DNA from: Escherichia coli | GTDB lineage: Bacteria > Pseudomonadota > Gammaproteobacteria > Enterobacterales > Enterobacteriaceae | Assembly (NCBI RefSeq): GCF_017348835.2 | Contig: NZ_CP071375.1 | Direction: 5' to 3' (one strand) | Length of the DNA: 64,000 nucleotides | In this document: positions 5,158 through 42,616 of the stretch, one piece after another | How positions within the stretch are numbered: position 1 is the stretch's first letter | Layout: every line of letters starts with the position of its first letter | Translations under genes and position numbers: made by a program | The notes under the pieces: model-generated | Told to the model about the DNA's origin: nothing | Databases searched by the model: none | What the model saw: the letters and a program-made list of their open reading frames with translations, nothing else

Positions 5158-6540
5158 ATGTCTCCTTGTAAACTTCTGCCATTTTGTGTGGCCCTTGCGC
5201 TAACCGGTTGTTCACTGGCACCGGATTATCAGCGCCCGGCAATGCCCGTGCCGCAGCAGTTCTCACTCAGCCAGAACGGCCTCGTTAACGCAGCAGATAA
5301 CTACCAGAACGCGGGCTGGCGCACCTTTTTTGTTGATAATCAGGTGAAGACGCTGATTAGCGAGGCGCTGGTGAATAACCGGGATTTGCGCATGGCGACG
5401 CTGAAAGTGCAGGAAGCGCGGGCGCAATATCGTCTGACCGATGCTGACCGCTACCCACAGCTCAATGGCGAGGGCAGCGGCAGCTGGAGCGGCAATCTTA
5501 AAGGCGATTCAGCCACGACGCGGGAGTTTTCTACTGGCCTTAACGCCAGCTTTGACCTCGATTTTTTCGGGCGCTTAAAGAACATGAGCGAAGCCGAGCG
5601 ACAAAATTATTTAGCCACTGAGGAAGCTCAGCGCGCGGTGCATATTCTGCTGGTTTCTAATGTCGCGCAAAGCTATTTCAATCAGCAGCTGGCGTATGCG
5701 CAATTGCAAATAGCCGAAGAAACGCTGCGTAATTATCAGCAGTCATATGCGTTTGTCGAAAAACAACTGTTGACAGGTAGCAGTAATGTTCTGGCGCTGG
5801 AACAGGCTCGCGGGGTGATTGAAAGTACCCGCAGCGACATCGCTAAACGTCAGGGGGAACTGGCGCAGGCGAATAATGCATTGCAACTGTTATTGGGAAG
5901 CTACGGCAAGCTGCCGCAAGCGCAGACAGTAAACGGCGGCAGTCTGCAAAGCGTTAAATTACCGGCGGGCTTGTCGTCGCAAATCTTATTGCAGCGCCCG
6001 GATATTATGGAAGCTGAACATGCGTTAATGGCGGCTAATGCCAATATTGGTGCTGCACGCGCGGCATTTTTCCCGTCTATCAGCCTGACCAGCGGAATAT
6101 CAACCGCCAGCAGCGATCTGTCGTCATTATTTAACGCCAGCAGCGGGATGTGGAATTTTATACCCAAAATTGAGATCCCCATTTTTAATGCCGGACGTAA
6201 CCAGGCCAATCTGGATATCGCCGAAATTCGCCAGCAGCAGTCGGTGGTGAATTATGAACAGAAAATCCAGAACGCCTTTAAAGAAGTGGCAGATGCGCTG
6301 GCATTACGTCAAAGCCTGAACGATCAAATTAGCGCCCAGCAGCGTTATCTGGCATCGCTGCAAATTACTTTGCAACGGGCGCGGGCATTATATCAGCACG
6401 GCGCAGTAAGTTATCTGGAAGTGCTGGATGCCGAGCGTTCTTTATTTGCAACCCGACAAACTTTACTTGACCTGAATTATGCCCGTCAGGTTAACGAAAT
6501 TTCTTTATATACCGCACTTGGTGGCGGTTGGCAGCAATAA
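5158..6540 (+). CDS. cusC: CusC, outer-membrane efflux channel lipoprotein
   Basis: 460-aa ORF with lipobox LTGCS near N-terminus; TolC/OprM-like. Confidence 0.92.
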   Translation: MSPCKLLPFCVALALTGCSLAPDYQRPAMPVPQQFSLSQNGLVNAADNYQNAGWRTFFVDNQVKTLISEALVNNRDLRMATLKVQEARAQYRLTDADRYPQLNGEGSGSWSGNLKGDSATTREFSTGLNASFDLDFFGRLKNMSEAERQNYLATEEAQRAVHILLVSNVAQSYFNQQLAYAQLQIAEETLRNYQQSYAFVEKQLLTGSSNVLALEQARGVIESTRSDIAKRQGELAQANNALQLLLGSYGKLPQAQTVNGGSLQSVKLPAGLSSQILLQRPDIMEAEHALMAANANIGAARAAFFPSISLTSGISTASSDLSSLFNASSGMWNFIPKIEIPIFNAGRNQANLDIAEIRQQQSVVNYEQKIQNAFKEVADALALRQSLNDQISAQQRYLASLQITLQRARALYQHGAVSYLEVLDAERSLFATRQTLLDLNYARQVNEISLYTALGGGWQQ

Positions 6541-6563
6541 CTTTTAACTCCAGGAGAGAATAA

Positions 6564-6896
6564 ATGAAAAAAGCACTGCAAGTCGCAATGTTCAGTCTGT
6601 TTACCGTTATTGGCTTTAATGCCCAGGCTAACGAACATCATCATGAAACCATGAGCGAAGCACAACCACAGGTTATTAGCGCCACTGGCGTGGTAAAAGG
6701 TGTTGATCTGGAAAGCAAAAAAATCACCATCCATCACGATCCGATTGCTGCCGTCAACTGGCCGGAGATGACCATGCGCTTTACCATCACCCCGCAGACG
6801 AAAATGAGTGAAATTAAAACCGGCGACAAAGTGGCGTTTAATTTTGTCCAGCAGGGCAACCTTTCTTTATTACAGGATATTAAAGTCAGCCAGTAA
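6564..6896 (+). CDS. cusF: CusF, periplasmic copper chaperone
   Basis: 110-aa ORF with signal peptide and His/Met-rich mature N-terminus; SD-like GGAGAG upstream. Confidence 0.92.
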   Translation: MKKALQVAMFSLFTVIGFNAQANEHHHETMSEAQPQVISATGVVKGVDLESKKITIHHDPIAAVNWPEMTMRFTITPQTKMSEIKTGDKVAFNFVQQGNLSLLQDIKVSQ

Positions 6897-6911
6897 CCCA
6901 GGTTTAATGAG

Positions 6912-8135
6912 ATGAAAAAAATCGCGCTTATTATCGGCAGCATGATCGCGGGCGGTATTATTTCTGCGGCAGGTTTTACCTGGTTTGCAAAGGCTGAACC
7001 ACCCGCAGAAAAAACATCGACCGCAGAACGTAAAATCTTATTCTGGTACGACCCTATGTATCCCAATACGCGGTTCGATAAACCAGGTAAATCGCCGTTT
7101 ATGGATATGGATCTGGTGCCGAAATATGCCGATGAAGAGAGTTCTGCGTCTGGTGTGCGCATTGACCCGACTCAGACGCAGAATCTGGGGGTGAAAACGG
7201 CTACCGTCACGCGCGGACCGCTGACTTTTGCCCAGAGTTTCCCGGCGAATGTCAGTTACAACGAGTATCAGTATGCCATTGTGCAGGCTCGCGCTGCCGG
7301 GTTTATCGACAAGGTGTATCCGCTTACCGTGGGCGATAAAGTACAAAAGGGCACACCGCTTCTCGACCTGACCATTCCTGACTGGGTGGAAGCGCAGAGT
7401 GAGTATTTACTGCTGCGCGAAACCGGCGGTACGGCGACCCAGACTGAAGGCATTCTTGAGCGGCTGCGACTGGCGGGAATGCCGGAGGCGGATATTCGCC
7501 GCCTGATCGCCACGCAAAAAATCCAGACTCGCTTTACGCTCAAAGCACCCATTGATGGCGTGATCACCGCGTTTGATCTGCGCGCGGGAATGAATATCGC
7601 CAAAGATAACGTGGTAGCGAAAATTCAGGGTATGGACCCGGTGTGGGTCACTGCTGCGATCCCGGAGTCTATCGCCTGGCTGGTGAAAGATGCCTCGCAG
7701 TTTACGCTCACCGTTCCGGCACGACCGGATAAAACACTCACCATCCGCAAATGGACGCTGCTACCCGGCGTGGATGCCGCGACCCGCACGCTGCAGCTGC
7801 GTCTGGAAGTCGACAACGCCGACGAGGCGCTAAAACCGGGCATGAACGCCTGGTTGCAACTCAATACCGCCAGCGAACCGATGCTGCTCATTCCGTCACA
7901 AGCGCTGATTGATACCGGCAGCGAACAGCGGGTGATTACCGTTGATGCCGACGGGCGCTTTGTACCGAAACGCGTTGCCGTTTTCCAGGCATCGCAAGGT
8001 GTCACCGCATTACGCTCTGGTCTGGCGGAAGGTGAAAAGGTGGTTTCCAGCGGCCTGTTCCTGATTGATTCCGAAGCCAATATTTCTGGCGCACTGGAGC
8101 GGATGCGCTCTGAAAGTGCTACCCATGCGCATTGA
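6912..8135 (+). CDS. cusB: CusB, membrane fusion protein of the Cus efflux pump
   Basis: 407-aa ORF directly after cusF; recognised by recall. Confidence 0.92.
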   Translation: MKKIALIIGSMIAGGIISAAGFTWFAKAEPPAEKTSTAERKILFWYDPMYPNTRFDKPGKSPFMDMDLVPKYADEESSASGVRIDPTQTQNLGVKTATVTRGPLTFAQSFPANVSYNEYQYAIVQARAAGFIDKVYPLTVGDKVQKGTPLLDLTIPDWVEAQSEYLLLRETGGTATQTEGILERLRLAGMPEADIRRLIATQKIQTRFTLKAPIDGVITAFDLRAGMNIAKDNVVAKIQGMDPVWVTAAIPESIAWLVKDASQFTLTVPARPDKTLTIRKWTLLPGVDAATRTLQLRLEVDNADEALKPGMNAWLQLNTASEPMLLIPSQALIDTGSEQRVITVDADGRFVPKRVAVFQASQGVTALRSGLAEGEKVVSSGLFLIDSEANISGALERMRSESATHAH

Positions 8136-36424: not shown

Positions 36425-37586
<1,162 letters not shown>

Positions 37587-37628
37587 ACCCGACAGAATTA
37601 TATGAGATTGCAGGAAAACTCGGTTAAC

Positions 37629-37648
37629 GGAGTGATCGAGTTAACATT
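37629..37648. promoter_or_regulatory. CRP-like site upstream of cstA
   Basis: aGTGA-tcgagt-TaACA matches TGTGA-N6-TCACA at 4 of 5 positions in each half-site; cstA is a carbon-starvation gene. Confidence 0.4.
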
Positions 37649-37766
37649 GTTAAGTTAAATATTGGTTTCAACTCCGATTTACATGGTTGCTGTGTTGTTA
37701 AATTGCGCAAAGATGTTATAGAAACAAAATGTAACATCTCTATGGACACGCACACGGATAACAACT

Positions 37767-39872
37767 ATGAACAAATCAGGGAAATACCTCGTCTGGACAG
37801 TGCTCTCTGTAATGGGAGCATTTGCTCTGGGATACATTGCTTTAAATCGTGGGGAACAGATCAACGCGCTGTGGATTGTGGTGGCGTCGGTCTGTATCTA
37901 TCTGATCGCTTACCGTTTTTATGGCCTGTATATCGCCAAAAATGTGCTGGCGGTTGACCCGACGCGTATGACGCCAGCGGTGCGCCATAACGACGGGCTG
38001 GACTATGTGCCGACGGACAAGAAAGTGCTGTTCGGTCACCATTTTGCGGCCATTGCCGGAGCAGGTCCGTTGGTGGGGCCGGTGCTGGCAGCGCAAATGG
38101 GCTACCTGCCGGGGATGATCTGGCTGCTCGCCGGGGTGGTTCTCGCCGGTGCGGTGCAGGATTTCATGGTGCTGTTTGTTTCTACGCGCCGTGACGGTCG
38201 TTCGCTGGGTGAGCTGGTCAAAGAAGAGATGGGGCCAACCGCCGGGGTGATCGCGCTGGTGGCCTGCTTTATGATCATGGTCATTATCCTTGCAGTACTG
38301 GCGATGATCGTGGTGAAAGCCCTGACTCATAGCCCGTGGGGAACGTATACCGTTGCGTTCACCATTCCGCTGGCGCTGTTTATGGGGATCTACCTGCGCT
38401 ATCTGCGTCCGGGGCGTATTGGTGAAGTGTCGGTCATCGGTCTGGTATTCCTGATTTTCGCCATTATCTCTGGCGGCTGGGTGGCAGAAAGTCCGACCTG
38501 GGCACCGTACTTTGACTTTACCGGCGTGCAGCTGACCTGGATGCTGGTGGGTTACGGTTTTGTGGCGGCGGTGCTGCCGGTGTGGTTGCTGCTGGCTCCG
38601 CGTGACTACCTCTCTACCTTCCTGAAAATCGGGACGATCGTCGGTCTGGCGGTAGGCATTTTGATTATGCGCCCGACGCTGACCATGCCTGCACTAACTA
38701 AATTTGTTGATGGTACTGGCCCGGTATGGACCGGTAACCTGTTCCCGTTCCTGTTTATCACCATCGCCTGTGGCGCGGTGTCAGGCTTCCATGCGCTGAT
38801 CTCTTCCGGCACCACGCCGAAGATGCTGGCGAACGAAGGGCAGGCGTGCTTTATCGGCTACGGTGGAATGTTAATGGAATCCTTCGTGGCGATTATGGCG
38901 CTGGTTTCCGCCTGTATCATCGATCCGGGCGTTTACTTTGCCATGAACAGCCCAATGGCGGTGCTGGCTCCGGCAGGGACGGCGGATGTGGTCGCTTCTG
39001 CCGCGCAGGTGGTGAGTAGCTGGGGCTTTGCGATTACCCCGGATACGCTAAACCAGATTGCCAGCGAAGTGGGTGAACAGTCGATCATTTCCCGTGCGGG
39101 CGGTGCGCCGACGCTGGCGGTGGGGATGGCCTACATTCTGCACGGCGCGCTGGGCGGCATGATGGATGTGGCGTTCTGGTATCACTTCGCCATTTTGTTT
39201 GAAGCATTGTTTATTCTGACGGCGGTGGATGCAGGTACGCGTGCTGCGCGCTTTATGTTGCAGGATCTGCTGGGCGTGGTTTCTCCGGGCCTGAAACGGA
39301 CCGATTCACTGCCTGCTAACCTGCTGGCAACGGCGCTGTGCGTGCTAGCGTGGGGCTACTTCCTGCATCAGGGGGGGGTCGACCCGCTGGGTGGTATTAA
39401 CACTCTGTGGCCGCTGTTTGGTATTGCCAACCAGATGCTGGCAGGGATGGCGCTGATGCTCTGTGCCGTGGTGCTGTTCAAAATGAAACGTCAACGTTAC
39501 GCCTGGGTGGCGCTGGTACCAACGGCCTGGCTGCTGATTTGTACCCTGACCGCTGGCTGGCAGAAAGCGTTTAGCCCGGATGCGAAAGTCGGCTTCCTGG
39601 CCATTGCTAACAAGTTCCAGGCAATGATCGACAGCGGCAATATTCCGTCGCAGTATACTGAGTCACAGCTGGCGCAACTGGTGTTCAACAACCGTCTGGA
39701 TGCCGGGTTAACCATCTTCTTTATGGTGGTCGTGGTGGTTCTGGCACTGTTCTCGATTAAGACGGCACTTGCGGCATTGAAAGAGCCGAAGCCAACGGCG
39801 AAAGAAACGCCGTATGAGCCGATGCCGGAAAATGTTGAGGAGATCGTAGCGCAGGCGAAAGGCGCGCACTAA
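37767..39872 (+). CDS. cstA: CstA, carbon starvation protein / peptide-pyruvate transporter
   Basis: 701-aa polytopic membrane ORF; recognised by recall. Confidence 0.93.
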   Translation: MNKSGKYLVWTVLSVMGAFALGYIALNRGEQINALWIVVASVCIYLIAYRFYGLYIAKNVLAVDPTRMTPAVRHNDGLDYVPTDKKVLFGHHFAAIAGAGPLVGPVLAAQMGYLPGMIWLLAGVVLAGAVQDFMVLFVSTRRDGRSLGELVKEEMGPTAGVIALVACFMIMVIILAVLAMIVVKALTHSPWGTYTVAFTIPLALFMGIYLRYLRPGRIGEVSVIGLVFLIFAIISGGWVAESPTWAPYFDFTGVQLTWMLVGYGFVAAVLPVWLLLAPRDYLSTFLKIGTIVGLAVGILIMRPTLTMPALTKFVDGTGPVWTGNLFPFLFITIACGAVSGFHALISSGTTPKMLANEGQACFIGYGGMLMESFVAIMALVSACIIDPGVYFAMNSPMAVLAPAGTADVVASAAQVVSSWGFAITPDTLNQIASEVGEQSIISRAGGAPTLAVGMAYILHGALGGMMDVAFWYHFAILFEALFILTAVDAGTRAARFMLQDLLGVVSPGLKRTDSLPANLLATALCVLAWGYFLHQGGVDPLGGINTLWPLFGIANQMLAGMALMLCAVVLFKMKRQRYAWVALVPTAWLLICTLTAGWQKAFSPDAKVGFLAIANKFQAMIDSGNIPSQYTESQLAQLVFNNRLDAGLTIFFMVVVVVLALFSIKTALAALKEPKPTAKETPYEPMPENVEEIVAQAKGAH

Positions 39873-39879
39873 AGTCAGA

Positions 39880-40020
39880 GTGAGGGGGATGTTGGCGAAT
39901 GTTGGCATAGTGCCGAGGGTTCCCCCTCACTCTAACCATCTCCCCGATGGGGCGAGGGGACTGACCGAGCGCGTTGATAGCATTTGTAGGCCGGATAAAG
40001 CGTTCACGCCGCATCCGGCA
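39880..40020. repeat. Palindromic intergenic repeats (REP-like) between cstA and ybdD
   Basis: AGAGTGAGGGGGA ... TCCCCCTCACTCT inverted repeat at about 39880-39935, then REP unit GTAGGCCGGATAAAGCGTTCACGCCGCATCCGGCA. Confidence 0.75.
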
Positions 40021-40052
40021 CTCTTTCAGCAACATGGTTAGCGGAGGCCAAG

Positions 40053-40250
40053 ATGTTTGATTCACTGGCAAAAGCCGGAAAATATTTAGGTCAGGCGGCG
40101 AAGCTGATGATTGGTATGCCTGATTACGACAACTATGTCGAACATATGCGGGTTAACCATCCCGATCAAACGCCGATGACCTACGAAGAGTTTTTCCGTG
40201 AGCGGCAGGACGCGCGCTACGGTGGAAAAGGCGGCGCGCGCTGCTGCTAA
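40053..40250 (+). CDS. ybdD: YbdD, small DUF466-family protein co-located with cstA
   Basis: 65-aa ORF; recognised by recall. Confidence 0.85.
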
Positions 40251-41347
40251 ATTTGCACGTCAGGCTTTAACGATTCCACTTTTTCGAACGCTGCACGCAA
40301 CGTATCTGGTGTCAGCGTGACTGGCAGGTAATGAATGGACTCCACCGGGCGCAAGGTGTGGGCAATCACTTTGTCGATCTCCGCCTGATTATTGATATCC
40401 ACTTCCAGCTCCGCCAGCGTAGTCGGCAGATGAAAACGCTGATACGCTCCAGTTAATTGCGCCAGAACATCATCCTGACCCAGCAAGGCGCTTTGCACCA
40501 GAATTCCGTAGGCGACTTTGGTGCCGTGAAGAAACTTCTCGGTTTGCGGCAGCACGGTCAGACCGTTATGCACGGCGTGAGCCGCCGCCACACGCGTAAA
40601 ACGATCGCCCAGACCACCGACCATTCCACCTCCGGCGATAATGGCATCCACCACATCGCAAAATGATTGCGTTAACTGCTGATTTTGCTGATCGCTCAGC
40701 GCCTGTTCGCTACTGTTTAACAAGACGTCGCGAATGGCCTGCGCATTATTGATCCCCAGCCGCACGGTTAGCGGCAACGTTTCTGGTTGCGGAGCCAGCA
40801 CCACCGCTTCATACCATTTCGCCAGCGTGTCACCGATCCCCGCCAGCAGATATTGTTGCGGCGCATTGAGGATAATCTCTGGTTCCACCAGCACCATAAA
40901 ATTGGCGTCGTCGAAAATCTCATAATGCAGCGCCTGTCCGGCATCGTTATACCAGACGGAGAGCGGTGTCCAGGCGGCGCAGGTGGCGGCGATCGTCGGA
41001 GCGGCAACAAATGGCAGACCGAGACGGCGGGCGAGGGCTTTCGCGGTGTCGAGTAGTGCGCCGCCGCCGACGCCAATCACCACGCTGCGATCGTCACCGG
41101 ACTCAGCCGCCAGTTGTTGTACATCGCTTTCGCTGCAATGACCGCGAAACAAAATATGCTTTGCCCCCGGCAGTTCAAACGCTGGCGGAAGTTTGGTTTG
41201 CGCCGCAGCAATGGCGCGTTCGCCGTAGATCCACACCGCGCGAGAAAGTTGTTCATCAGTGAAAAAATCGTGCAGATGATTGAAACTTCCTGGATGTGAA
41301 AAGTAGTTAGCCGGGCCGACGACCACGCGGATAGGATTGTGAGGCAT
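40247..41347 (-). CDS. ybdH: YbdH, iron-containing (group III) alcohol/hydroxycarboxylate dehydrogenase
   Basis: 366-aa ORF (exact start not verified); glycerol-dehydrogenase-like motifs. Confidence 0.88.
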
Positions 41348-41455
41348 GTTGTGTTGTCCTTATTGTTTTATTTAGACATCTAAACGTCTTGATTGCCAAA
41401 TACTAGCATCGTGTTATAGTGCCTTCAACACGCAACTTCGTCAGGTACAATAAAA

Positions 41456-42616
41456 ATGACAAATAACCCTCTGATTCCACAAAGCAAACTTCCACAACTT
41501 GGCACCACTATTTTCACCCAGATGAGCGCGCTGGCGCAGCAACACCAGGCGATTAACCTGTCGCAAGGCTTTCCTGATTTTGATGGTCCGCGCTATTTAC
41601 AGGAGCGGCTGGCGTACCACGTTGCCCAAGGGGCAAACCAATACGCGCCCATGACCGGCGTGCAGGCCTTGCGCGAGGCGATTGCTCAGAAAACGGAACG
41701 TTTGTATGGCTATCAACCAGATGCCGATAGCGATATCACCGTAACGGCAGGGGCGACGGAGGCGTTATACGCGGCGATTACCGCATTGGTGCGCAATGGC
41801 GATGAAGTGATTTGTTTTGATCCCAGCTATGACAGTTACGCCCCCGCCATCGCGCTTTCTGGGGGAATAGTGAAGCGTATGGCACTGCAACCACCGCATT
41901 TTCGCGTTGACTGGCAGGAATTTGCCGCATTGTTAAGCGAGCGCACCAGACTGGTGATCCTCAACACTCCGCATAACCCCAGTGCAACTGTCTGGCAGCA
42001 GGCTGATTTCGCCGCTTTGTGGCAGGCGATCGCCGGGCACGAGATTTTTGTCATTAGCGATGAAGTCTACGAGCACATCAACTTTTCACAACAGGGCCAT
42101 GCCAGTGTGCTGGCGCATCCGCAGCTGCGTGAGCGGGCAGTGGCGGTTTCTTCATTTGGCAAGACCTATCATATGACCGGCTGGAAAGTGGGTTATTGTG
42201 TTGCGCCAGCGCCCATCAGCGCCGAAATTCGCAAGGTACATCAGTATCTGACCTTTTCGGTGAATACCCCGGCACAGCTGGCGCTTGCTGATATGCTACG
42301 TGCAGAACCTGAGCATTATCTTGCGTTACCGGACTTTTATCGCCAGAAGCGCGATATTCTGGTGAATGCTTTAAATGAAAGCCGGATGGAGATTTTACCG
42401 TGTGAAGGTACATACTTTTTGCTGGTGGATTACAGCGCCGTATCTACCCTGGATGATGTTGAGTTTTGCCAGTGGCTGACGCAGGAGCACGGCGTAGCGG
42501 CGATTCCGCTATCGGTGTTTTGCGCCGATCCCTTCCCTCATAAACTGATTCGTCTCTGTTTTGCCAAGAAGGAATCGACGTTGCTGGCAGCAGCTGAACG
42601 CCTGCGCCAGCTTTAG
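41456..42616 (+). CDS. ybdL: YbdL, PLP-dependent methionine aminotransferase
   Basis: 386-aa ORF; aminotransferase class I features including SFGKT (PLP lysine). Confidence 0.9.
   Translation: MTNNPLIPQSKLPQLGTTIFTQMSALAQQHQAINLSQGFPDFDGPRYLQERLAYHVAQGANQYAPMTGVQALREAIAQKTERLYGYQPDADSDITVTAGATEALYAAITALVRNGDEVICFDPSYDSYAPAIALSGGIVKRMALQPPHFRVDWQEFAALLSERTRLVILNTPHNPSATVWQQADFAALWQAIAGHEIFVISDEVYEHINFSQQGHASVLAHPQLRERAVAVSSFGKTYHMTGWKVGYCVAPAPISAEIRKVHQYLTFSVNTPAQLALADMLRAEPEHYLALPDFYRQKRDILVNALNESRMEILPCEGTYFLLVDYSAVSTLDDVEFCQWLTQEHGVAAIPLSVFCADPFPHKLIRLCFAKKESTLLAAAERLRQL

Follow-up and report, generated by a model that had tools for sequence, protein, structure and literature searches.

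The cstA–ybdD locus of an Escherichia coli genome: a probable pyruvate uptake system and a rare convergent overlap of ybdD with hcxA

We have analyzed a stretch of 64,000 nucleotides of an Escherichia coli genome (contig NZ_CP071375.1, referred to as the window) and in it the region formed by cstA, the small gene ybdD and the convergent gene hcxA (ybdH). The locus is very probably the known CstA–YbdD pyruvate/H+ uptake system of E. coli, and the short overlap between ybdD and hcxA a neutral by-product. This 4-nt overlap of reading frames is a rare strain allele, neither a feature of the species nor a conserved design. The pairing of CstA and YbdD, the phenotype of ΔybdD mutants, the predicted complex of both proteins and the overlap of transcripts with hcxA are already published, so that the observation as first noted adds little to what was known. 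The synteny of a subfamily of COG0523 GTPases with CstA-DUF466 across proteobacterial classes could matter more, and gives a cheap testable hypothesis.

Gene layout and identity of the locus

The coordinates that an earlier note on this DNA had assigned to cstA, ybdD and ybdH are all correct according to the ORF listing and the sequence. The genes, with the Shine-Dalgarno (SD) sequence of ybdD, are as follows.

37767–39872, plus strand: cstA, 701 aa, pyruvate/H+ symporter of the CstA family (ORF, Pfam PF02554, RefSeq annotation of the identical sequence)
40043–40047, plus strand: Shine-Dalgarno sequence GGAGG, 5 nt ahead of the ybdD ATG (from the sequence)
40053–40250, plus strand: ybdD, 65 aa, DUF466/PF04328 microprotein (ORF, Pfam)
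40247–41347, minus strand: hcxA (ybdH), 366 aa, hydroxycarboxylate dehydrogenase, allele WP_053883463.1 (ORF, Fe-ADH Pfam matches, RefSeq in strains PE164 and F2_81)

CstA belongs to its family (PF02554, TC 2.A.114) over the full length of the Pfam profile, residues 33-596 covering positions 1-560 of 560 with 852 bits for a cutoff of 27 (E 2.8e-256). The small protein is a clear member of PF04328 (Sel_put/DUF466; 105 bits, cutoff 25, E 1.6e-30), its residues 5-65 corresponding to profile positions 2-61 of 61, and like other YbdD proteins it is encoded directly 3' of cstA on the same strand, after a gap of 180 nt. HcxA matched PF00465 with 72 bits and is the ortholog of the K-12 enzyme. Strain PE164 is 100% identical to the window, and there RefSeq names the genes cstA, ybdD and hcxA in an identical layout. 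The comparison with the constitutive CstA–YbdD system of K-12 (PMC5847655, PMC7730263) indicated the same gene set and order and 100% identity of both CstA and YbdD (tblastn). The spacer between the two genes is of the same repeat-filled type, with 182 nt in K-12 and 180 nt in the window.

CstA and YbdD as partners

The earlier note described a CstA-type transporter followed by a small gene as a recurring arrangement, and we have found that it recurs widely, in a second E. coli copy (btsT-yjiX) and also across Proteobacteria and beyond. A search with a 13-sequence DUF466 alignment retrieved 80 related loci, a collection biased to close YbdD relatives and mostly from Enterobacterales. CstA was located directly upstream of DUF466 and on the same strand in 71 of the 76 close loci that had an upstream flank. 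It was also directly upstream in the seven distant members (7/7, with gaps of -14 to +12 nt), and adjacent to DUF466 in the four loci (4/4) that we reached from the COG0523 side. The adjacency of cstA and DUF466 is far beyond chance. Five Gilliamella loci have a YbdD-like gene without any CstA within 6 kb, indicating that DUF466 can have a function independent of a neighboring CstA.

The second E. coli copy belongs to BtsT-YjiX-YjiA, a paralogous pyruvate/H+ symporter locus that is inducible via BtsSR/YehUT. Like in the window, a CstA-family transporter (62% identical) is followed on the same strand by DUF466 (73% identical). The spacer between btsT and yjiX is 49 nt and the COG0523 GTPase gene yjiA starts 10 nt after yjiX, whereas the locus in the window has no GTPase and ends against the convergent hcxA.

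The proposed functional link between the small protein and the transporter agrees with three kinds of published evidence, i.e., the phenotype of ΔybdD, cofitness and a predicted complex. CstA transports pyruvate specifically and is driven by H+, as established in intact cells with the K-12 protein, identical to the one encoded here (Gasperotti 2020, PMC7730263). A ybdD deletion without transport phenotype, the result that the earlier note had set as decisive against a role of YbdD, has already been looked for in the literature and the idea survived, since pyruvate uptake dropped to 20% of the wild type in ΔybdD and to 13% in ΔcstA (Hwang 2018, PMC5847655). In the same work both mutants escaped the toxicity of 3-fluoropyruvate, and in the ΔybdD ΔcstA double mutant the effects were not additive. 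In three further bacteria DUF466 genes show cofitness with genes of cstA type, and the one of C. basilensis has a pyruvate-specific phenotype, from which cofitness DUF466 was proposed as an accessory of CstA-like transporters (Price 2016, bioRxiv 10.1101/072470). A CstA–YbdD complex was also predicted above threshold with AlphaFold-Multimer (2024, bioRxiv 10.1101/2024.02.17.580829). The strain ΔbtsT ΔcstA ΔyhjX regains growth on pyruvate with plasmid-borne cstA alone (PMC7730263), which is uninformative about the need for YbdD because this strain keeps the chromosomal ybdD and yjiX. In the mechanism that we propose CstA would be the membrane symporter, and YbdD a cytoplasmic three-helix microprotein needed for CstA-dependent pyruvate uptake that most likely binds CstA from the cytoplasmic side.

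AcrZ-AcrB is another pair formed by a microprotein and a transporter. Hwang 2018 (PMC5847655) cited YjcH-ActP of E. coli and MctB-MctC of Corynebacterium, in which a microprotein gene is also located beside a secondary transporter and both have a common phenotype. The small partners in these three pairs are membrane proteins, whereas YbdD is predicted soluble and has conserved His and Cys. Besides, ybdD is located 3' of its transporter gene, while in pairs of the YjcH-ActP type the small partner is encoded upstream.

YbdD, COG0523 GTPases and a possible three-gene module

The AF2 model of YbdD (pLDDT 78.6) has helices at residues 2-19, 25-35 and 44-56 followed by a flexible C-terminal tail, and the protein is predicted to be soluble, without a transmembrane segment. 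Eight columns (G21, P23, Y25, Y28, H31, H36, C64 and C65) are invariant in the DUF466 alignments, although the His/Cys conservation statistics rest partly on sequences chosen for completeness. YbdD has the family core YxxYxxHxxxxH (Y25, Y28, H31, H36) and ends in ARCC; a C-terminal (R/K)CC followed by the stop was found in all 80 genomic homologues (80/80). This conservation suggests a putative metal or redox site formed by His31, His36, Cys64 and Cys65. The DUF466 selenoproteins of Campylobacterales (Cravedi 2015, PMC4607533) are alike in family and in the position of the C-terminal dyad. They end in Cys-Sec (UGA and a SECIS, then the stop), in contrast to the Cys-Cys of YbdD (TGC TGC TAA), which has no Sec codon and no significant structure downstream (z +1.88) and falls outside that subgroup. 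All DUF466 matches were of 126 aa or less, and among them we found no fusion of CstA to DUF466 or of DUF466 to COG0523. Sequence searches of the PDB with CstA and YbdD gave no match, and the Foldseek search of the PDB with the YbdD model no meaningful one (best E 4.7), so that no structural analogy for YbdD can be drawn. As a separate observation, one DUF466 match (P0208) begins with a CstA-like motif and seems to be a chimeric or incomplete gene prediction.

A COG0523 gene was found 3' of the ybdD-like gene and on the same strand in 27 of the 80 loci, in Gamma-, Alpha- and Epsilonproteobacteria, with a median gap of 15 nt that has an SD sequence inside. The reciprocal test pointed in the same direction, with four diverse members of the COG0523 subfamily (4/4) appearing in the order CstA-DUF466-COG0523 over unrelated flanks. 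The K-12 order btsT-yjiX-yjiA with its short spacers, the Gilliamella loci, in which DUF466 and COG0523 are kept and CstA is absent, and Mangrovibacter, with cstA-ybdD-cobW and then a convergent hcxA, fit a common pattern, and YehUT controls btsT, yjiX and yjiA of S. Typhi jointly. Aeromonas and Edwardsiella are further examples in which cstA, ybdD and COG0523 are all present as a module. Together with the invariant H31, H36, C64 and C65 and the Cys-Sec ends of the Campylobacterales homologues, these data argue for a second reading, possible if tentative. According to it YbdD/DUF466 would primarily be a small, putatively metal- or redox-active protein whose partner is a COG0523 metallochaperone-type GTPase of its own, the unit being CstA–DUF466–COG0523. 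YbdD could then couple transport to metal or GTP status, or be a client of the GTPase, and the E. coli cstA-ybdD would be a degenerate copy in which the GTPase was lost. Binding to CstA would be compatible with such a role.

Several results weigh against it. COG0523 was absent from the three distant DUF466 loci with a downstream flank (0/3), and most cstA-ybdD loci of Enterobacteriaceae do not have it either, indicating that the pair can do without the GTPase. Deletion of yjiA caused no chelator phenotype (PMC10763504), and the selection of complete sequences mentioned above affects also the His/Cys argument. As for the locus in the window, no COG0523 gene follows ybdD there, the downstream gene being the convergent hcxA, and tblastn of YjiA or of the Gilliamella GTPase gave no match in the E. 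coli cstA loci. In its most specific form the second reading takes DUF466 proteins (YbdD, YjiX) to be more than passive parts of a transporter. They would be small adaptors, metal- or redox-binding through His2Cys2 (or Cys-Sec), with a COG0523 metallochaperone GTPase subfamily of their own to service them, in an ancestral CstA-DUF466-COG0523 module of which the copy in the window has lost the GTPase; we regard this version as rather doubtful. If it were true, the orphan GTPase YjiA would gain a long-sought client and pyruvate uptake would be tied to metal or GTP status. For the locus in the window we retain the CstA–YbdD uptake system as the preferred reading.

The ybdD–hcxA junction and the cstA–ybdD spacer

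The overlap of the ybdD stop with the ybdH stop on the opposite strand, reported in the earlier note at 40247-40250, is confirmed by the sequence. The two genes share 4 nt and their stop codons 2 nt.

40247–40250, no strand assigned: convergent overlap CTAA, 4 nt; ybdD TAA at 40248-40250, hcxA TAG from CTA at 40247-40249
40266–40270, minus strand: site of a 1-bp deletion, TTTAA here and TTTAAA in K-12 (pairwise alignment)

This loss of one base near the end of hcxA is what makes the ORFs overlap. In K-12 the stops of ybdD and hcxA are separated by a gap of 9 nt, which was found also in another E. coli and in E. albertii, in contrast to the 4-nt overlap of the window. The deletion frameshifts the last codons of hcxA, so that the K-12 ending ...KKVESFKA* is changed to LKPDVQI* and HcxA has 366 aa instead of the 362 of K-12, with 99% identity over residues 1-361. 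The new frame continues as far as a TAG that the last codons of ybdD, Cys and stop (TGC|TAA), provide on the opposite strand. Only two of 5,426 complete E. coli genomes carry the allele of the window, whereas the K-12 allele is present in at least 5,148. The carriers are PE164 (pig, China) and F2_81 (pig, Australia), which are independent assemblies. The overlap would thus have appeared as a neutral by-product of the deletion in a rare pig-associated lineage. Before an unusual gene boundary in one strain is given a functional meaning, it should be compared with the rest of the population.

The earlier note also claimed that the junction leaves no room for separate terminators. This holds, given that the promoter/terminator scan found no terminator-like site at the ybdD/hcxA junction, that the folds of the two 3' regions (ybdD and hcxA) had z values of +1.88 and -0.14, i.e., no significant structure, and that in MG1655 the pair is listed as an excludon. 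The list for this strain, obtained from RNA-seq with ExcludonFinder (2025, PMC12288877), has 165 convergent excludons, i.e., convergent genes with overlapping transcripts, and ybdD-hcxA is one of them. The sequence prerequisite of such a pair, no terminator between the genes, is present in the window. The transcript of ybdD, having no terminator of its own, would enter the convergent hcxA and vice versa.

From here it could be argued that the stop-stop overlap is a selected excludon that makes the expression of ybdD (pyruvate uptake) and hcxA mutually exclusive, a reading that we consider unlikely. It is favored by the place of ybdD-hcxA in the core convergent excludome of MG1655 and by the junction without terminators. 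In addition, in 15 of 16 loci of Klebsiella/Enterobacter type a different convergent gene, HTH antitoxin-like, overlaps ybdD at its stop codon, by exactly 4 nt (palindromic TTAA). However, the convergent partner of ybdD differs between clades, and where it is hcxA the spacing varies by lineage (-4, +1, +9, +11, +48, 98-191 or >500 nt), when hcxA is not absent altogether. Within E. coli the reading frames overlap only in the two genomes mentioned. Convergent overlaps of 4 nt arise easily because the stops TAA and TAG are near-complementary. Finally, the excludon of K-12 exists without the ORF-level overlap seen in the window, and since its transcripts overlap anyway, that of the reading frames adds nothing specific.

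The spacer between cstA and ybdD contains two repeat elements.

39873–39975, plus strand: repeat-derived hairpin element, a 16-nt inverted repeat followed by a G-rich small hairpin
39989–40030, plus strand: REP (repetitive extragenic palindrome) unit, inverted repeat I3 GCCGGATAAAGCGT/ACGCCGCATCCGGC, with a sub-threshold Rfam match

The arms of the first inverted repeat (I1, 39874-39889 and 39921-39936) are 94% complementary, and the RNA fold of the whole spacer had -80.7 kcal/mol (z -2.25). This hairpin element corresponds to the 'HPG1' G-quadruplex/hairpin motif listed between cstA and ybdD (Kaplan 2016, PMC5100583), and other Escherichia and Salmonella/Citrobacter have a shorter version of it or none. 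The REP unit gave a match to the REP-derived naRNA4 of 32 bits (gathering score 59.5, E 0.005), the only and sub-threshold one in the Rfam scan of 37400-41600, where no riboswitch or sRNA was found. Nearly all the CstA–DUF466 spacers that we folded form a stable hairpin. In 65 of 66 loci its stem runs for at least 7 bp without a break, the median z being -4.0, and that of Citrobacter is terminator-like; the structured spacer of E. coli is inflated by the repeat hairpin and the REP. No sigma-70-like promoter was found in the spacer, while one within cstA could exist. Probably, ybdD owes its expression to transcripts of cstA that read through the hairpin, which would result in less message for YbdD than for CstA.

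The location of ybdD directly 3' of the structured cstA 3' region and inside the transcript overlap with hcxA leaves room for an indirect explanation of the ΔybdD phenotype, by altered stability of the cstA mRNA 3' end or by convergent transcription of hcxA, with the YbdD protein outside the transporter. Hwang 2018 (PMC5847655) reports no complementation of ΔybdD, and the word 'complement' is absent from the paper, hence the phenotype could be partly indirect. We nevertheless judge this explanation quite unlikely. YbdD is under very strong purifying selection, with 74-80% identity between E. coli and Sulfurospirillum/Bartonella and invariant residues, DUF466 remains the neighbor of CstA in different phyla, some of the layouts having translational coupling, and its cofitness with cstA-like genes appeared independently in each of the three bacteria mentioned above.

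As for the deletion at the end of hcxA, it sits in a short homopolymer context (TTTAAA), but a sequencing or assembly error is very improbable and can be rejected, the run having just 3 nt and the allele and its 366-aa accession being common to two complete genomes that differ in country and project.

Gene order at the junction and the tie of YbdD to CstA

The arrangement reported in the earlier note, cstA followed by a small DUF466 gene whose 3' end overlaps a convergent gene by 4 nt, is confirmed by the ORF list, the sequence, the RefSeq annotation of the identical record and Pfam. CstA matches PF02554 (852 bits), YbdD matches DUF466/Sel_put, PF04328 (105 bits), and HcxA has a Fe-ADH Pfam match. 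Gene positions below follow the ORF list and that annotation; the GGAGG was read from the sequence.

37767-39872, + strand: cstA, 701 aa
39873-40052: cstA-ybdD spacer, 180 nt
40043-40047, + strand: GGAGG before ybdD
40053-40250, + strand: ybdD, 65 aa
40247-41347, - strand: hcxA (formerly ybdH), 366 aa

The ybdD gene ends in TGC TGC TAA, with the TAA at 40248-40250, and the hcxA stop is a TAG read on the opposite strand from the CTA at 40247-40249; the genes have 4 nt in common and the two stop codons share 2 nt.

That the small protein serves the transporter, as the earlier note suggested, is supported and was already established knowledge. A Tn-seq screen with 3-fluoropyruvate picked out cstA and ybdD together, and pyruvate uptake relative to wild type was 13% in ΔcstA, 20% in ΔybdD (a phenotype reported without complementation) and 25% in the double mutant, which did not differ significantly from either single mutant (Hwang et al., 2018, PMC5847655). 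These authors concluded that CstA and YbdD are one transporter system and left the interaction for testing. CstA is a specific H+/pyruvate symporter in intact cells (Gasperotti et al., 2020, PMC7730263); that study never mentions ybdD and its host strain retains ybdD and yjiX, therefore it is no test of CstA autonomy. An AlphaFold-Multimer complex of CstA and YbdD was above threshold (Fesenko et al., 2024, bioRxiv 10.1101/2024.02.17.580829), "cstA-ybdD" has already been deleted as one unit in Salmonella work, and PDB sequence searches gave no solved structure of either protein. Most likely YbdD acts in the cytoplasm as an accessory to the CstA pyruvate/H+ symporter and is its putative binding partner; the genetic requirement has been demonstrated, and direct binding we infer.

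The ybdD/hcxA overlap

The overlap highlighted by the earlier note is present in the window, but as a rare allele. In K-12 MG1655 there are 9 nt between the end of ybdD and the hcxA stop, and HcxA has 362 aa. Pairwise alignment indicated a single difference that matters, TTTAA in the window versus TTTAAA in K-12. In the hcxA frame this deletion replaces the K-12 end (...KKVESFKA and stop) by a longer altered C-terminus, according to the translations, and the shifted frame ends at the antisense TAG formed by the Cys-stop junction of ybdD. With short megablast queries built so that all 28-mer words cross the indel, we found the window allele in 2 of 5,426 complete genomes and the K-12 allele in 5,148, those counted for neither having other SNPs inside the word or lacking the region. 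The window allele is carried by PE164, from a pig in China, and F2_81, from a pig in Australia; one 366-aa protein accession is common to both, therefore the variant is real, yet limited to one lineage. Nor was the ORF overlap conserved over 80 related loci, and it is probably neutral.

Spacing between ybdD and hcxA over 80 related loci
-4 nt: the window alone
+1 nt: Pseudescherichia vulneris
+9 nt: E. coli, E. albertii
+11 nt: a single Citrobacter
+48 nt: S. enterica arizonae
98-191 nt: other Citrobacter and relatives
550-4,127 nt: loci with other genes in between
hcxA absent: the rest

This 4.1-kb stretch (37400-41500) is 100% identical to PE164. Of 5,421 matching E. coli records only 2 reach 99% identity with it, and nearly all other complete genomes are at 95-99%, which places the window in an uncommon lineage associated with pigs.

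The absence of room for separate terminators, also claimed before, holds with or without the deletion. A consensus scan of the junction gave no terminator-like site, and RNA structure 3' of the ybdD and hcxA stops was not above that of shuffles (z +1.88 and -0.14). In K-12, ybdD-hcxA is one of 165 convergent excludons present in 50% or more of the 58 MG1655 RNA-seq samples (ExcludonFinder, PMC12288877). Overlapping transcripts thus belong to the species, and beyond them the ORF overlap contributes nothing demonstrable.

In 16 loci of the Klebsiella, Enterobacter, Lelliottia, Pseudocitrobacter and Leclercia type, ybdD and hcxA are separated by a ParE/RelE-like toxin gene and an HTH_3 antitoxin-like gene, both on the minus strand.

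L040:6195-6888, - strand: toxin and HTH_3 genes, example
L009, L011, L013-L015, L017-L019, L022, L027, L030, L045, L056, L059: further loci

In 15 of these loci the stops of ybdD and the HTH gene run into each other, with exactly 4 nt in common, a palindromic T|TAA. Overlap between convergent stops has therefore evolved two or more times at the 3' end of ybdD, with different partners. This fits a gene without a terminator and with an untrimmable C-terminus, and offers no support for a specific ybdD-hcxA device.

Linkage to CstA and to a COG0523 GTPase

The recurrence of the transporter-DUF466 pair was borne out: among the 76 loci with upstream flank, 71 have CstA directly ahead of the DUF466 gene in the same orientation, as do 7/7 distant family members examined, and E. 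coli has a second pair, btsT-yjiX. Distant members have gaps of 12 nt or less, or overlaps of 1-14 nt, a spacing that suggests translational coupling. The median spacer over Enterobacterales, Aeromonas and others is 62 nt, and 65 of 66 contain a stable GC-rich hairpin whose stem runs unbroken for 7 bp or more, differing in sequence between loci. Fold z was below -2 in 58/66 (median -4.0), relative to mononucleotide shuffles and over related taxa, so that the cases are not independent. The C. amalonaticus stem scores terminator-like. In Escherichia the spacer (120-182 nt) is enlarged by a repeat hairpin and REP, the hairpin being the HPG1 G-quadruplex/hairpin motif previously listed for this spacer (PMC5100583). 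We infer that the hairpin may stabilise or partly terminate the cstA message, with ybdD expressed by read-through. In a single metagenomic contig (around P0146, a YbdD-family protein) CstA-DUF466 is followed by the methionine sulfoxide reductase genes msrB (SelR) and msrA (PMSR), a lone redox-flavoured case.

The only leads worth follow-up are a three-gene module and a His/Cys signature. Of 80 loci, 27 have a gene for a COG0523 (CobW/YjiA-like) GTPase 3' of the ybdD-like gene on the same strand, at a median gap of 15 nt containing the SD. Taxa include Aeromonas, Edwardsiella, Buttiauxella, Atlantibacter, Mangrovibacter, Orbaceae, a Hyphomicrobiales MAG and Sulfurospirillum.

L016, L026, L028, L031, L041, L044, L047, L049, L060-L071, L075, L080, L082, about 6200-7250 each: GTPase loci
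L083:1410-4780 and L091-L094: GTPase loci
L061, L067, L069, L070, L076, 6001-6198: Gilliamella ybdD-like gene, 77-82% identical to YbdD

Searching from the GTPase side, the order CstA-DUF466-COG0523 appeared in 4/4 diverse members (a Neisseria-like betaproteobacterium, Hohaiivirga, Ignatzschineria and Serratia) with unrelated flanking genes. The five Gilliamella loci retain both DUF466 and COG0523, and no CstA lies within 6 kb; L061, the sole one with neighbours examined, has a divergent EPSP synthase upstream. The paralogous K-12 locus reads btsT, 49 nt, yjiX, 10 nt, yjiA, and in S. Typhi yehUT mutants these three genes decrease together. GTPases beside YbdD-type genes share only 37-41% identity with YjiA, therefore each paralogous module has its own GTPase lineage. 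No paper linking DUF466 or yjiX with COG0523 was found in the open-access literature searched. This association would suit DUF466 as a metal or redox adaptor, or as a client of the GTPase, which we consider unlikely. Against a general role, the GTPase is missing from most enterobacterial cstA-ybdD loci and in 3/3 distant DUF466 loci with downstream flank, and ΔyjiA had no chelator phenotype (PMC10763504).

Mangrovibacter has cstA-ybdD-cobW and then convergent hcxA, the Escherichia layout plus the GTPase, and the window's locus has no COG0523 gene, so by gene order the E. coli ybdD/hcxA junction looks like the scar of a GTPase loss. In Orbaceae ESL0727 (L068:6131-6200) the conserved N-terminal P-loop segment of the GTPase begins two codons past the end of ybdD, which puts the start of the GTPase gene within ybdD (overlap about 32-68 nt) and implies very tight coupling or a mis-assembled junction.

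The His/Cys signature of YbdD

YbdD is 74-80% identical to Sulfurospirillum, Bartonella and Orbaceae homologues, with matches at E<=0.001 in only 591 clusters (50% identity) among 1.8 billion representatives. G21, P23, Y25, Y28, H31, H36, C64 and C65 were invariant in a 40-sequence alignment (41-91% identity), a larger count being partly circular. The AF2 model has helices at 2-19, 25-35 and 44-56, a low-confidence GGKGGARCC tail, no membrane segment and no PDB fold match.

40143-40145, + strand: His31 codon
40158-40160, + strand: His36 codon
40242-40247, + strand: Cys64 and Cys65 codons

These four, invariant over the family, form a Cys2His2-like set, a candidate metal site. The literature has discussed a redox role only, owing to Cys-Sec variants; Campylobacterales members have selenocysteine as last residue in place of Cys (PMC4607533).

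A frameshift in the GC-rich GGCGGCGCGCGCTGCTGC tail carries many "YbdD" database entries from E. coli-like contigs (P0010, P0018, P0082, P0100, P0119 and P0121 among them) on into hcxA antisense, where they end for example in ...GGALLLNLYVRL or ...VTGR; errors of sequencing or gene calling probably explain them. Enterobacterial ybdD or yjiX in Streptomyces assemblies, a 465-bp contig of "Streptomyces sp. DH24" (L005, 98% identical) and a 10.5-kb "plasmid" of Streptomyces laculatispora (H35, 90%), is most likely contamination.
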